Origin: a virus
Taxonomy: Duplodnaviria; Heunggongvirae; Uroviricota; Caudoviricetes
IMG/VR virus record: IMGVR_UViG_2563366865_000004
Location: 1-38,371 of that record
DNA: 38,371 bases
Direction: 5' to 3' (one strand)
A model generated the notes under the pieces. The model was not told the DNA's origin. It worked only from the letters and a program-made list of their open reading frames with translations, and made no database searches. This document shows positions 24,736 to 29,689 of this stretch, in pieces (positions within the stretch are counted from its first letter, which is position 1; each line of letters opens with the position of its first letter). Made by a program: the position numbers and the translations under genes.

Positions 24736-27129
24736 TCATACGTCCGCCCCTTGTGCATATCGTCTGCCACGTGCAGCGGGTGCATTTGATGTTGTGCAAA
24801 TCTGTCTGGCTTCATCCTGGTCACATGCAACAAAGTGTCCGTTGCAGAACCGCTGGTAAACCGTACCAAGTGAGCCAAAACGGTTTTTCGTCACGATGAT
24901 TTCAGCAAATGGCGCGGCGCTACTGTTCTCGTCATATACCGCTTCCCGATAGAGCATGATGATTGAGTCTGCGTCCTGCTCAATGCTTCCTGAATCACGC
25001 AAATCTGCGTTTGTCGGGCGTTTGTTTGGTCGCTTCTCAACATCGCGCGAAAGCTGACTCAGGGAGATAACAGGCGTTTTCAGGTCTTTCGCCATCGCCT
25101 TAAGGCTTCCTGAGATGTGAGCAATTGCGAGGTCGTTGCGGTCTGCTTTCGGCTTCTCAATCAGGCCAAGATAATCCGCCATGATGAGTGACAGGTTTGG
25201 ATTTTCCTGTTTGTGCCGTTCTGCGATTGAGCGTATTTCTTCGACCGATAACCGCGAGGCATCGACTACCCATACATCCAAATCTGCAAGCTGACTCATG
25301 CCGTTAGCAACACGCGCCCAGCCTTCGTCATCCATCGATGCAGGATTTCGCAGTACGCTAACCGACATCCTCCCGGCGTTGGCAATGCTTCGCTCTGCAA
25401 TCTGCAATGCGCTCATTTCCATTGAGAAAATCAATACCCCGCGCCGGACGTCAGAACCAGGAATAACGCGGCTTGCAACGCCTTCGGCAATCTTCAGCGC
25501 CAGTTCCGTATTGTGCGTAACGATGTAATCCGTTGTCACATAGAGATGGCTAGGATGGCTTACCATGATGCAGAGACACTCTTCTGGCTCAACAACTTCA
25601 ACCGATTTGATACCCACACCAAGGTCGCCAAGCCTGTTAATCCCGAGATTTTTGCGTAAACGTGGTGAGTGAATTTGCTCTATCAAAGATGATGGCAACT
25701 TCATGCTGACCATGTGTGCATCAAGTCCGTCATGCTTCTCTCCTTTGTACGTGTAAACTATTCCCGTCCTGCTGGATTCTTTGGCGGTTCCACCTAAAGA
25801 TCTAACAAGCCTTACTAATCCTTTAGCTAATTTCTGACTGGATGAACTAAAGCGGATGCATCCGGACTTCTCAACCCAGCCATCTGTCTCGAGAAGGCCA
25901 GTTAAAACACCGGTACGTATTTCTTTGCTAGCACTAAAAATTTCTGCTGGGATTTCCTTCTCGGACGCACCTTTCCCGATCATCCCAATGCCACGTAGTT
26001 TGTCCAATAGTGGGTTCTTCTGGCCTTTTTGGTTGCTTATCAAATAATCATTCTCTCCTACCTTAACCAGTCGCAGTGGTGCAATTGCATCACTCATGCG
26101 GCTCAGGACATATTCTTCCGAGTTGGTGAATTTGATGCCTTTTATCAACGAACCGTCACCAAGTAGAGCCCCAATAACCCAACCATCAAGGGGAATATTT
26201 TTACCAAAGTCTCCGGTCAAGGATGGCACTCTTATTCTTCCCTGATAACGTGTTTTTTGTAGCATCCCAGCCAGCGCATCAGTATCAACAACGCGCTTAC
26301 CAGTAAATCTTGATGATGAAATTTCCCATAAGTGGTTGTCGGCACATTTCACGCTACGTCCGTCTTCAAAGGTGACTAAATATGTGAATTTCTTCCCTTG
26401 CGGGAAGACGCCAATTACCTCCGAAGGAAGCCCGTCTATTGACGCGATGCGATCGCCAATTTTGACTTCTCCGTGAGTAGTCCAGGTGCCATCTGCAAGT
26501 AAAATCCCTTCGCTTAGCGCCATTGCTTTCCCCATACCAGGACGAGCAGCGATAATCACCAGGTCTTCCGCGTTCATCCCTCCGGTGATGGCGTCAAGTT
26601 CTTCGATTCCGGTCTTCAGGGTATCTGACTCTTCTCCGTTCCTCAGACGCCTGTCAAGCGTGTCAGTGTAGTCAGTTATGATTTCCCCTAACCGTACAGG
26701 TTTAACCTCGTCACGGGGCTTTCTGATGGCTGAAAGACGTTTTACCAGTTCATCCATCGCCTGACTCGATGCGTCGATGGTTCCGCTCTGAATTGGTTCA
26801 CGCATTTCATCCATGATTTCCAGCACCAGACGGCGGTGATAGTTATCCGCGACCATTCCGGCATATCCCTTCAGGTTTGCGGCGCTCGGGCAGTTTTTGC
26901 TGGTCATCAGGATTGACGTGAAATGCTCCTCTCCGCACGCCTCGGCAACCATCAACGCGTCGATTAGGTTTCTGTTTCGCGCCTGCTTCCGGATAACTTC
27001 GAAGGCTTTCCGGTAGAGCGGAATTGAAAACGCTTCCGGCTCAAGCGTTGCCAGAACGTCACTGGCGGTTGGAGTTAATCCACCAATCAGCAGGCCACCG
27101 ATAACGCTCGCTTCGATATCCTGTCTCAT
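24736..27129 (-). CDS. DnaB-type replicative helicase (P22 gp12-like) precursor, 797 aa, interrupted by a 339-aa intein in the Walker A motif
   Basis: N-extein 201 aa ending AARPGMGK and C-extein 257 aa starting [10 protein letters not shown] rejoin to a canonical P-loop; exteins total 458 aa. Confidence 0.9.
25510..26526 (-). mobile_element. Intein (339 aa) with LAGLIDADG homing endonuclease domain; class-3-like features
   Basis: Starts [10 protein letters not shown] (Ala1), ends YIVTHN with +1 Thr; Trp in block B (ADNHLWEI), Cys in block F region (EECLCIM), Thr three residues from the C-terminus; LAGLIDADG-like [14 protein letters not shown] and [13 protein letters not shown]. Confidence 0.8.
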
Positions 27130-28073
27130 GCAATCCCCCTGTCTGCAAACTTCCCTTCCCGAACTCCCGTTAACGAGTCTTCCCTCAGCAGGTAATCAAA
27201 ATCAGCCGTCCAGCCCGTGTCGTTGTCTCCGAAGTAAAACGGCTTGGCCTGATGCACAAACGCCCTGACATACGCTCTGAAACCGTCCACATTTGGCGTT
27301 TTCAGTTGCGGGATGATTTTCTTCAGGCGGCGTTTGCGTTTCTCGTTGACCGCAACAGCGTGTGGCAGTCTGTCACCGACTTCGGTGTTGTAGGCGTTCA
27401 GGAAGGATTCGTAGTCGATTCGTTCTGCCTTGCGACGTTCAGGTTTAACCTGCCCATCGCCTCCCCCATTGGGGGGTAGGGGGGTATTATTTATATTCTT
27501 GTTAATACCTTCTTGTTCATGATGTGCGGTTGTTTGTGCGGCTTCATGTGCGCTTTCATGTGTGGCATGTACGCTGAAAGCCGCGCCATTACTGGCTTCA
27601 TCATGTGCGGCATCATGTGCGGTTGTTTGTGCGGCTTCATGTGCGGGTGAATTGTCCATTTTTTGAGCGTATTCATGGTAATTTGTGATGGTGATCACAC
27701 GCCCTTTTTGCTTCTCTCCATCAATGGAAATCATCCCCTCTTTCACAAAAACCTGAAGCATCCGCTCAACCTGATCACGGCTTGCTGGCTTGCCATGCCT
27801 GTCGCATAACTGAAGACCTAAATCAGCTGCTGTCACAACCAGTTGACCGGGTTGCAGATGCCATTCATGACCTTTGAAATTCGCTTTGTATGGCTTTCTG
27901 GCGGCATTCAGGAGAAGGTTTTCCCACAGGGTGCGAAGATAAACATCTTTCGCCCATGACTGTTTCAGAATGCTCCGGTACAACGGAATGTAACCAGTTT
28001 TCTGGTTCTCCATCCTGTTGCTCCTGCGCTCGTGTGCGGCGCTGAAATCGTAGATTTTTGCTGTATTGCTCAT
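27126..28073 (-). CDS. Replication initiator (lambda O / P22 gp18-like), 315 aa
   Basis: N-terminus [10 protein letters not shown] resembles lambda O; internal His/Ala-rich repeats encoded by the ori iterons; directly upstream of helicase. Confidence 0.8.
27517..27650. repeat. Candidate origin of replication: iteron-like direct repeats inside the initiator gene, with adjacent AT-rich stretch (27481-27512)
   Basis: Perfect 30-nt direct repeat TGTGCGGTTGTTTGTGCGGCTTCATGTGCG at 27523-27552 and 27617-27646; about seven copies of TGTGCGG. Confidence 0.55.
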
Positions 28074-28075
28074 AA

Positions 28076-28348
28076 CTACCTGCCTTGACGAAAGACCTTA
28101 AGAACATCGTTAAACTGACTTACGGATATGTCTTCTTTGAGAAGCTTTTCCAGAAATGCGTTTGGAATGAACGTATATCCCTCCTCTTTTGGTAGAGACG
28201 GGAGCAACGCCCTCGCCTCAGCCTTCAGAAACTCAGTTCTGGCAACTTTCACAAAAGAGATTTGAGTTCTTTCATCAATGGAACGAAGGAAGCGCAAACG
28301 CTTAGCTTCTTTGTGTGTATCAGGTGGATTAAAGCCTTTGTTTCGCAT
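28076..28348 (-). CDS. Hypothetical protein, 90 aa, inserted between cII and the initiator gene
   Basis: Internal Met with GAGGT RBS chosen; the longer supplied ORF would overlap cII in another frame. Confidence 0.5.
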   Translation of the reverse strand: MRNKGFNPPDTHKEAKRLRFLRSIDERTQISFVKVARTEFLKAEARALLPSLPKEEGYTFIPNAFLEKLLKEDISVSQFNDVLKVFRQGR

Positions 28349-28370
28349 ATAATTACCTCGTTGGATGTTG

Positions 28371-28664
28371 TTAAAATTCCATTTGTATTTGATCAGAACG
28401 CTCGGTTGCCGCCGGGCGTTTTTTATTGGTGAGAATCGAAGCAACTTGTCGTGCCAATCGAGCCATGTCGTCGTCGACGACACCCCATTCAAGAACAGCA
28501 AGCAGCATTGAGAACTTTGGAATCCAGTCCCTCTTCCACCTGCTGATCTGCGACTTATCAACTCCCACAGCTTCCGCTGTCTTCTCAGTTCCAAGCATTG
28601 CGATTTTGTTAAGCAACGCACTCTCGATTCGTAGAGCCTCGTTGCGTTTGTTTGCACGAACCAT
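28371..28664 (-). CDS. cII: CII transcriptional activator, 97 aa, lambda-type
   Basis: MVRANKRNEALRIESALLNKIAMLGTEKTAEAVGVDKSQISRWKRDWIPKFSMLL matches lambda CII; upstream TTGTTAAGGAAATACTTACATATG identical to lambda as remembered. Confidence 0.9.
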   Translation of the reverse strand: MVRANKRNEALRIESALLNKIAMLGTEKTAEAVGVDKSQISRWKRDWIPKFSMLLAVLEWGVVDDDMARLARQVASILTNKKRPAATERSDQIQMEF

Positions 28665-28723
28665 ATGTAAGTATTTCCTTAACAAATAAGAAGTTATGCG
28701 CATCAACTTATGCGCGTTGTATT

Positions 28724-28766
28724 CCCGCATTTCGGCGGGAATGAGGACCATGACTGTTAAAGAGCA
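28724..28766 (-). promoter_or_regulatory. nutR (boxA plus boxB)
   Basis: Minus strand boxA TGCTCTTTAACA then boxB hairpin CCCGCCGAAATGCGGG between cro and cII. Confidence 0.6.
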
Positions 28767-28772
28767 ATTTGC

Positions 28773-28958
28773 TTATGCCGCTTTGCGGTAAGCGCTTTCT
28801 TGATACTTCAGGGCGCCAGCTGTAACGACTTCCAGTCGATAGGCGTCTTTCTCTGGGATGACTTCCTTCCACTGAGAGACTGCTGCGTCGCTAATGCCTA
28901 ACGCTTTAGCTACAGCACGCTGGGTTCCGAAGTGGTCGATAACATCTTTCTTGTACAT
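28773..28958 (-). CDS. cro: Cro repressor, 61 aa, P22-type
   Basis: MYKKDVIDHFGTQRAVAKALGISDAAVSQWKEVIPEKDAYRLE matches P22 Cro as remembered. Confidence 0.9.
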   Translation of the reverse strand: MYKKDVIDHFGTQRAVAKALGISDAAVSQWKEVIPEKDAYRLEVVTAGALKYQESAYRKAA

Positions 28959-29038
28959 AGACTCGCTCCGAAATTAAAGAACACTTAAATTGTCCACTAA
29001 AGGAATCTTAAGTCAAGTTTATTTAAGATGTCTTAACT
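28959..29038. promoter_or_regulatory. OR operator / PR-PRM region
   Basis: Divergent cro and c2 starts; partial dyads containing TTAAG half-sites, e.g. ATTTAAGATGTCTTAACT abutting the c2 ATG (leaderless PRM transcript implied). Confidence 0.6.
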
Positions 29039-29689
29039 ATGAAAACTCAATTGATGGGAGAGCGCATTCGCGCTCGGAGAAAAGAACTCAAGATCAGGCA
29101 GGCCGCACTTGGAAAGATGGTCGGCGTGTCTAATGTTGCCATATCTCAGTGGGAACGCTCTGAGACAGAGCCAAATGGAGAGAATCTTCTCGCCCTGGCT
29201 AATGCGTTGAAGTGTTCCCCTGACTATCTGATGAAAGGAGAGGAAAGTCTTTCAAACATTGCCTATCACAGTAGGCATGATCCAAGAGGGTCATACCCTC
29301 TGATTAGCTGGGTGAGCGCAGGATGCTGGATGGAAGCTGTAGAACCATATCATAAGCGTGCAATAGATAACTGGTACGATACAACCGTAGACTGTTCAGA
29401 CGATTCGTTTTGGTTGGACGTGAAGGGAGACTCAATGACGGCTCCGGCCGGTCTCAGTATCCCTGAAGGAATGATAATACTCGTCGATCCTGAAGTAGAG
29501 CCGCGTAACGGGAAACTGGTAGTTGCAAAGCTCGAAGGAGAAAACGAGGCAACTTTCAAGAAGTTAGTTATTGATGCAGGCAGGAAGTTTCTAAAACCAC
29601 TTAACCCACAATATCCGATGATCGAGATCAACGGGAACTGCAAAATCATCGGCGTAGTTGTCGATGCAAAACTAGCAAACCTTCCATAA
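29039..29689 (+). CDS. c2: C2 repressor (LexA-like autocleaving CI-family), 216 aa, P22-type
   Basis: MKTQLMGERIRARRKELKIRQAALGKMVGVSNVAISQWERSETEPNGENLLAL and C-terminal peptidase domain match P22 C2. Confidence 0.95.
   Translation: MKTQLMGERIRARRKELKIRQAALGKMVGVSNVAISQWERSETEPNGENLLALANALKCSPDYLMKGEESLSNIAYHSRHDPRGSYPLISWVSAGCWMEAVEPYHKRAIDNWYDTTVDCSDDSFWLDVKGDSMTAPAGLSIPEGMIILVDPEVEPRNGKLVVAKLEGENEATFKKLVIDAGRKFLKPLNPQYPMIEINGNCKIIGVVVDAKLANLP

Follow-up and report, generated by a model that had tools for sequence, protein, structure and literature searches.

Within the gene for the replication initiator of a tailed phage (Caudoviricetes; IMG/VR record IMGVR_UViG_2563366865_000004) lies an array of short direct repeats which is followed, in the direction of transcription, by a stretch of AT-rich DNA, and the question that this locus raises is whether the array is the site at which the phage begins to replicate its genome or whether it is only a repetitive piece of coding sequence. 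The window, by which is meant here the whole stretch of DNA that was analysed (38,371 nt), allows the question to be approached by comparison, and the answer reached is that the array is very probably an origin of replication, set within the frame of an O-like initiator gene and belonging to an E. coli phage that is CUS-3-like (P22-like, lambdoid). The layout of the site, its conservation, the constraint on the repeats at the level of DNA and their modular inheritance together with the N-terminal domain of the initiator can all be read directly from aligned sequences. In this regard, the original prediction of an iteron origin is supported by layout, DNA constraint and modularity but needs correction in its repeat unit, which is an iteron of 12 nt and not a repeat of 30 nt.

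The initiator is encoded by an open reading frame of 315 aa on the minus strand (27126–28073). Its product matches the Pfam family Phage_rep_O (PF04492) over aa 20–132 with 56.8 bits, the cut-off being 28.7, and PHROG 345 ('replication initiation O-like') with an E value of 3e-100. Nucleotide identity is 98.7% between this gene and gene O of CUS-3, a K1 phage, and 98% between it and its counterpart in some 50 Stx2a-converting phages. The genes follow one another as in CUS-3 (cI, cro, cII, O, helicase), cII and cro lying upstream on the same strand and cI being divergent. The earlier reading of the frame as an initiator gene is hence sound, and all computational tests agree with a lambdoid origin. 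Towards the N-terminus of the protein, aa 21–142 (27648–28013, minus strand) are modelled by AlphaFold2 as a winged helix, with helices at residues 44–59, 82–88 and 99–112 and wing strands at 115–129 (mean pLDDT 74, a moderate confidence), and this domain is the presumed reader of the iterons. A Foldseek search of the N-domain model against the PDB returned generic winged-helix regulators alone, at E values of about 1e-2, which are no guide to the binding mode, and a search of PDB sequences with the initiator returned no relative at E ≤ 1. The C-terminal half (27126–27459, minus strand) is presumed, from its homology to gp18, to be the domain that contacts the helicase.

Directly downstream, with an overlap of 4 nt, follows the gene for a DnaB-type replicative helicase of the P22 gene 12 type (24736–27129, minus strand; Pfam DnaB and DnaB_C), which is interrupted by an intein (LAGLIDADG, Hint) and which aligns to P of CUS-3 on either side of a 338-aa insert. 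The intein itself (~338 aa, LAGLIDADG; 25510–26523, minus strand) is inserted in the P-loop of the helicase, between GMGK and T; its first residue is Ala, and it ends with His-Asn, after which comes Thr. It is absent from CUS-3, the helicase of which has 458 aa, and 51 phage records (Stx2a phages, TL-2011a) carry it with 99.4% identity and label it just as helicase or hypothetical protein. On the other side of the initiator gene, between cII and O, an ORF of 90 aa, preceded by a good ribosome-binding site (28076–28348, minus strand), matches PHROG 2519 (unknown function) with an E value of 1e-56, and the 297-nt gap in the CUS-3 record which matches this ORF carries no annotation. Beyond it, on the plus strand, is a strong hairpin resembling an intrinsic terminator (28395–28422), which has 12 pairs and a run of T and is antisense to the 3'-terminal part of cII. 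The hairpin has no Rfam match; its location, which is that of the lambda oop terminator, suggests by analogy an oop-like antisense RNA.

At its very beginning (positions 1–84) the window carries 12 tandem copies of GTCTTGA, that is (AAGACTC)n on the minus strand, with an ATG at about 87–89 on that strand. These copies belong to the phase-variable poly(psi) heptanucleotide repeat by which the 5' end of neuO is marked in CUS-3-like phages (neuO encodes the K1 capsule O-acetyltransferase), and it is probably at this repeat that the sequence record was broken. Besides the heptamer array, the sole exact repeat of a 20-mer in the 38 kb is the direct repeat ATGTGCGGTTGTTTGTGCGGCTTCATGTGCG, which occurs at 27522–27552 and at 27615–27645 (plus strand); as a control, base shuffling produced a repeated 16-mer in only 3 of 50 cases. 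An exact duplication of 30 nt, with the copies 94 nt apart, had been described at this place, and what is found is indeed exact and duplicated, with the dimensions slightly different: the repeat has 31 nt and its copies are spaced by 93 nt from start to start. The further short repeats that had been pointed out, with the motif TGTGCGG (CCGCACA on the gene strand), are also present. The window has 10 of them where 4.7 would be expected; six fall within 27523–27646, all on the minus strand.

Degenerate copies of the motif, TGTGCGC and TGTGTGG, fill out a 4+4 array with steps of 12 nt, and TRF gives the array a period of 12. In other words, the conserved unit is a 12-nt iteron, CCGC(A/G)CAT followed by NNNN on the gene (minus) strand, which is present in 4+4 copies with a jump of 45 nt between the clusters, and the long repeat ATGTGCGGTTGTTTGTGCGGCTTCATGTGCG is built from units 1–3 and units 6–8 of the eight. 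Together these eight units span nt 428–556 of the gene, after the N-domain (aa 21–142) and before the C-terminal half. Read in the sense of the gene, the order begins just 5' of the array with a conserved A-tract, CAAAAAAT (27658–27665, minus strand), the per-column identity of which is 1.00 over most of its length in 29 loci. There follow cluster A with units 1–4 (CCGCACATGAAG, CCGCACAAACAA, CCGCACATGATG and CCGCACATGATG; 27599–27646, minus strand), then AAGCCAGTAATGGCGCGGCTTTCAGCGTACATG, then cluster B with units 5–8 (CCACACATGAAA, GCGCACATGAAG, CCGCACAAACAA and CCGCACATCATG; 27518–27565, minus strand), and finally AACAAGAAGGTATTAACAAGAATATAAATAATA and CCCCCCTACCCCCCAATGGGGGAGG. Between the clusters, a spacer of 33 nt (27566–27598, minus strand) sets the 45-nt jump. 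A plus-strand ORF of 45 aa that covers the array (27513–27650; Cys/Met/Phe-rich) was discarded as spurious, being an antisense reading of the repeats.

How much of this arrangement is maintained by selection can be judged from a set of 29 loci, which consists of the window, 26 diverse enterobacterial prophage loci (N-domains 67–83% identical) and two phages, one of Klebsiella and one of Yersinia; over the whole set, N-domain identity runs from 67 to 100%. In all 29 the steps from unit to unit are 12, 12, (12), 45, 12, 12, (12) nt, with the first unit at one shared offset, and both clusters keep their register. Every array is of either 3+3 or 4+4 form, never unequal, which makes 198 units, all of them in register. 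Their consensus, C C G C/A A/G C A T, carries 1.0–1.95 bits at positions 1–8, and positions 9–12 are nearly free (0.1–0.7 bits). A scan of viral contigs gave near-identical copies alone and thus no further diversity; of 80, 74 had the 4+4 form under a simple regular expression, five gave no match and one was split.

An array of this sort could conceivably be a mere low-complexity linker, made of His/Ala-rich tetrapeptides multiplied by replication slippage, with the AT-rich DNA behind it as an Asn/Lys-rich hinge. The repeats are indeed translated, as had been noted before, into a His/Ala-rich linker on the minus strand in the frame of the 315-aa ORF, and a period of 12 nt amounts to four codons. 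It is the choice of codons within that frame, in which the core reads xCC-GCR-CAT, that discriminates between a peptide and a DNA element. The codon preceding the core has C as its wobble base in 197 of the 198 units, even though the residue that it encodes is variable (P 82, A 54, S 28, T 20, G 13) and the matching codon families in the N-domain of these genes have C at the wobble position in 27%. Similarly, the Ala codons of the core are GCA (79) and GCG (79) and never GCC or GCT, where the N-domain uses the four in the numbers 63, 42, 62 and 44, respectively; the choice between GCA and GCG follows lineage. The His codons of the core are CAT in 158 cases and CAC in three. Units of one locus share 88% identity at positions 1–8 and only 43% at positions 9–12, and the core has therefore not simply been homogenised along with the rest of the unit.

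Nor would a slippage-prone linker be expected to keep a fixed jump of 45 nt and an n+n symmetry. A distant relative, the Salmonella phage S.Inf 5-2 (L005), has the same geometry (3+3, 12-nt steps, 45-nt jump) with a linker that is Pro/Asp-rich. The in-frame translation and the copying of one cluster onto the other that has taken place in some lineages speak for the linker explanation, which is all the same exceedingly improbable. Judged by their codons, the repeats are under selection at the level of DNA beyond what coding needs. Since the codon bias is fixed, the residues vary and the linker of L005 differs at equal geometry, the peptide follows the DNA; as the ribosome reads through the iterons, the linker is dictated by them, xCC-GCA-CAT giving Pro/Ala-Ala-His. 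On this comparison the His/Ala richness of the linker results from the iteron sequence and does not mark a conserved peptide, and the locus is a natural example of a DNA-binding array that dictates the sequence of the protein linker encoded by it.

The long repeat has to be seen in the same light. An exact repeat of at least 20 nt between the clusters is present in 7 of the 29 loci, and, as judged from this distribution, it is a lineage-specific outcome of occasional cluster-to-cluster copying and not the conserved feature. Such copying in some lineages means that part of the uniformity of the core within a locus may be due to homogenisation. Of two close relatives, L091 has a 3+3 array and L092 a 4+4 array, with both clusters longer by one unit in the latter. 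The equality of the half-arrays suggests, as far as sequences can tell, either copying from one cluster to the other or selection for halves of equal size.

Downstream of the repeats along the direction of transcription, where AT-rich DNA had been predicted, lies a real AT-rich stretch (27484–27523; GC 0.23), presumably the element at which the DNA unwinds. No 40-bp segment of the O gene or of the interval 24736–29000 is less stable, and in the 38 kb the stretch ranks among the lowest 0.18% of segments in stability at a length of 40 bp and among the lowest 0.07% at 30 bp. Across loci, identity at third codon positions is 0.74 in this stretch and 0.56 in the N-domain. There follows, where the C-terminal module starts, an imperfect G/C palindrome, ACCCCCCTACCCCCCAATGGGGGAGG (27460–27485), with a z-score of −2.46 for its single-strand fold. 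A homologous element stands after the AT-rich stretch in P22 and in ST104, and lambda has a different palindrome at the same position. As regards other signals, DnaA boxes (with at most one mismatch) are absent from the replication region and have a window-wide count equal to that of chance. An Rfam scan of 26800–29200 on both strands (E ≤ 0.1) gave no match, as a result of which a structured RNA at this place is without support. Scans for promoters and terminators around the array gave chance-level counts, with one weak terminator-like match inside the repeats that is an artefact of the repeat sequence.

These surroundings bear on a second explanation, in which the units would bind the initiator mainly for autoregulation or copy control (by titration, by handcuffing or as a roadblock to the transcription or translation of O), with unwinding and helicase loading taking place elsewhere. 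Iterons in plasmid replicons are known to have such roles. As it is, the array abuts both the least stable DNA and the palindrome, just as in ori-lambda and in the annotated origin of P22, and DnaA boxes or other origin-like features are not found nearby. The 38 kb contain no second iteron cluster, and the four copies of CCGCACA outside the array are what chance would provide. A lone copy does lie near the start of O (28033–28039, minus strand, codons 12–14), where an additional regulatory site could be envisaged; it is probably meaningless, given that the number of copies outside the array matches chance. A role confined mainly to control is, on balance, distinctly unlikely, and the reading of the array as the origin itself is preferred.

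If the array is an origin, the N-domain of the initiator would be expected to recognise the iteron core, and the comparison of loci offers some indication of how. The core is CCGCAC in 12 loci and CCGCGC or CCGAGC in 17, and three positions of the N-domain split exactly with the type of core, namely aa 82 (A vs S/T), aa 100 (D vs H) and aa 118. In the AlphaFold2 model these occupy DNA-contact positions of the predicted winged helix: aa 82 opens helix 2, aa 100 comes second in the recognition helix and aa 118 belongs to the wing. Within the limits of such a model the split fits a read-out of the core by the N-domain. In L005, the helix-turn-helix has diverged and the core has become CCCGATGAAC / TGCGATAAAC / TCCGATRA (CGATRA). 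The array of this phage (1911–2081) is thus a third iteron type and has an exact repeat of 34 nt, and the phage shares with the window the central spacer and a CCCCCC...GGGGG palindrome.

The covariation was at one point considered as proof of independent co-evolution of protein and site, a claim which was dropped on account of locus L101. This locus is a recombinant, which equals the Yersinia phage over its first 150 nt and then switches, and the breakpoint lies upstream of the helix-turn-helix, meaning that helix-turn-helix and iterons were acquired together. The covariation of N-domain and core could, in terms of sequence, reflect physical linkage, the coding region of the helix-turn-helix being just 100–250 nt from the array.

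A separate matter is the central spacer, the first 21 nt of which, AAGCCAGTAATGGCGCGGCTT (27578–27598, gene strand), are conserved across loci at the level of DNA. Over the 29 loci, the per-column identity is mostly 0.5–1.0 in these 21 nt and 0.3–0.8 in the remainder of the spacer, and the element is kept in L005 despite the different iteron core. It may be a further binding site, a relic of recombination or a conserved peptide, S-N-G-A-A. A conserved stem, AAGCC...GGCTT, was considered for the spacer and dropped, its variants being without compensation. The persistence of AAGCCAGTAATGGCGCGGCTT in DNA even where the core differs is not explained by the specificity of the initiator, and might be taken to indicate that a host factor or some other phage protein, in place of the initiator, is the chief reader of the repeats or of the spacer. 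For the repeats this is hard to reconcile with a core which changes together with the helix-turn-helix of the initiator, and the spacer, for its part, may be shared through the recombination of mosaic phages or kept for S-N-G-A-A. A host factor as the chief reader is accordingly highly unlikely, and such a reading fits the central spacer only; for the iterons themselves, the initiator remains the preferred partner.

That the N-domain and the array belong together is also apparent from the mosaic structure of the gene. Similarity to the Klebsiella and Yersinia phages extends over nt 9/48–584 of the gene, and similarity to gp18-type genes begins at nt 574, which is position 27500 of the window; these limits place a mosaic junction at 27490–27500, between the AT-rich stretch and the palindrome. 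In 26 of the 28 comparator loci, the module of N-domain, iterons and AT-rich stretch is joined to a C-terminal half of the lambda O type, which is followed by a lambda-P-like gene. The window and one comparator (L105) have instead a gp18-type C-terminal half followed by a DnaB-type helicase, and a further comparator (L110) has yet another C-terminal half. From the position of these junctions, N-domain, iterons and AT-rich stretch are inherited as one exchangeable module, and the C-terminal half is matched to the partner gene. In lambda O, the N-terminal 162 aa bind the origin (PMC2629481). By analogy, the split into modules would correspond to the division of labour established for lambda O, in which the N-terminal half serves the origin and the C-terminal half the partner protein.

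Taken together, these elements allow a course of initiation to be proposed on the model of lambda O and ori-lambda. Once the rightward early transcript has been translated, the winged-helix N-domain of the initiator would bind the eight 12-bp iterons (CCGCACAT and four variable bases each), which lie in two head-to-tail clusters of four, 45 bp apart. The nucleoprotein complex so formed would stress and melt the adjacent AT-rich stretch (27484–27523), whereupon the C-terminal half of the initiator, which is of the P22 gp18 / HK97 gp54 type, would bring in the phage's own DnaB-type helicase and not a loader of the lambda P type. As to stoichiometry, each 12 bp may be bound by a single domain, or each 24 bp by a dimer. 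A more specific and rather doubtful proposal is that the complex has an architecture other than that of the lambda O-some, with monomeric winged helices placed every 12 bp, two equal n+n half-arrays held in a fixed 45-bp phase and the 21-bp element binding a further, possibly host, factor, in addition to which residue 100 (Asp for A, His for G) would read position 5 of the iteron as a re-programmable specificity code. In this regard, Asp or His at aa 100, paired with A or G at iteron position 5, is a candidate for a switch of one residue and one base.

What the analysis provides in practical terms is a precise and testable origin map for a replication module which is often met with in the CUS-3-like prophages of E. 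coli K1. A large group of Stx2a-converting phages, in which the level of replication is linked to the production of toxin, has this module too, with 98% identity.

It remains to place the site among known replicons. With the iteron plasmids (Rep_3 / RepA / pi / TrfA) it shares head-to-tail repeats, a winged-helix initiator and an adjacent AT-rich unwinding element. Plasmid iterons, though, are about 17–22 bp long, lie outside the rep gene and act also in handcuffing, whereas in the window the array is inside the coding frame, and the initiator is assigned by Pfam to Phage_rep_O only and to no plasmid Rep family. The window is, in short, no plasmid iteron replicon of the kind that pairs a plasmid Rep family with iterons outside rep. 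Among phages, phage L has in its gene 18 six imprecise 11-bp repeats, TGTCCAACGGA, for which an origin has been proposed from sequence alone (10.1101/2020.10.05.325894). As far as can be compared by description, phage L has in common with the window short direct repeats of 11–12 bp inside a gp18/O-like gene, and differs in the sequence of the repeat and in an initiator which is only distantly related; a bipartite n+n layout is not part of its description. A description of the 12-nt CCGCRCAT bipartite type was not found in the literature searched, which is that outside the CUS-3, HK620 and Sf6 genome papers, and while the lambdoid kind of origin is well known, this type of site seems undescribed.

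The P22 gene 18 / gene 12 system, with its ST104 / HK97 gp54 variant, is nearer. Common to it and to the window are a downstream DnaB-type helicase and, behind the AT-rich stretch, the CCCCC...GGGGG palindrome, and the C-terminal half of the window's initiator is 52.8% identical in amino acid sequence to that of P22 gp18 over 144 aa and 94.7% identical to that of ST104 gp18. The N-terminal 160 aa of the initiator, in contrast, have no significant similarity to the P22 type, the repeats are different (of the CGGTAAAAC type in P22 and the TTAGCTAA type in ST104), and the AT-rich stretch, which is lambda-like in P22 and ST104, is of another sequence family in the window. In other words, the window agrees with the P22 18/12-type replicon in C-domain and helicase and departs from it in N-domain and repeats.

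With ori-lambda, and with the Stx phages 933W and P27, the site has in common an origin in the middle of a Phage_rep_O gene, where N-domain and iterons form one specificity module (PMC7466680), and a C-terminal half that is matched to the partner replication protein. The differences lie in the form of the iterons. Lambda has four of them (Stx phages six), each of about 18–19 bp with an internal dyad, in a single array, whereas the window has eight direct 12-bp units, within which no dyad is seen by eye, in a 4+4 arrangement with a fixed jump of 45 bp; the array is thus not of the lambda type by length, dyad, number or arrangement, and the stoichiometry and shape of the lambda complex are not simply transferable to it. 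The AT-rich sequence of lambda is unrelated to that of the window, its partner protein is the P loader where the window has a DnaB-type helicase, and the two N-domains are only about 32% identical over 65 aa.

For lambda, P22 and L, the accepted origins are iterons inside the O/18 genes, of a different type in each (10.1101/2020.10.05.325894; PMC7466680), and in the records themselves four iterons are annotated in the middle of lambda O (39034–39118) and a rep_origin in the middle of gene 18 of P22-pbi. The understanding of lambdoid origins is left unchanged by the window. The lambdoid arrangement that had been claimed for it is borne out, the order of repeats, AT-rich stretch and palindrome being found at one position of the gene in lambda, P22 and the window. 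When lambda O, P22 18, ST104 18 and the initiator gene of the window are set side by side, all four have type-specific direct repeats, followed by AT-rich DNA and then by a palindrome.
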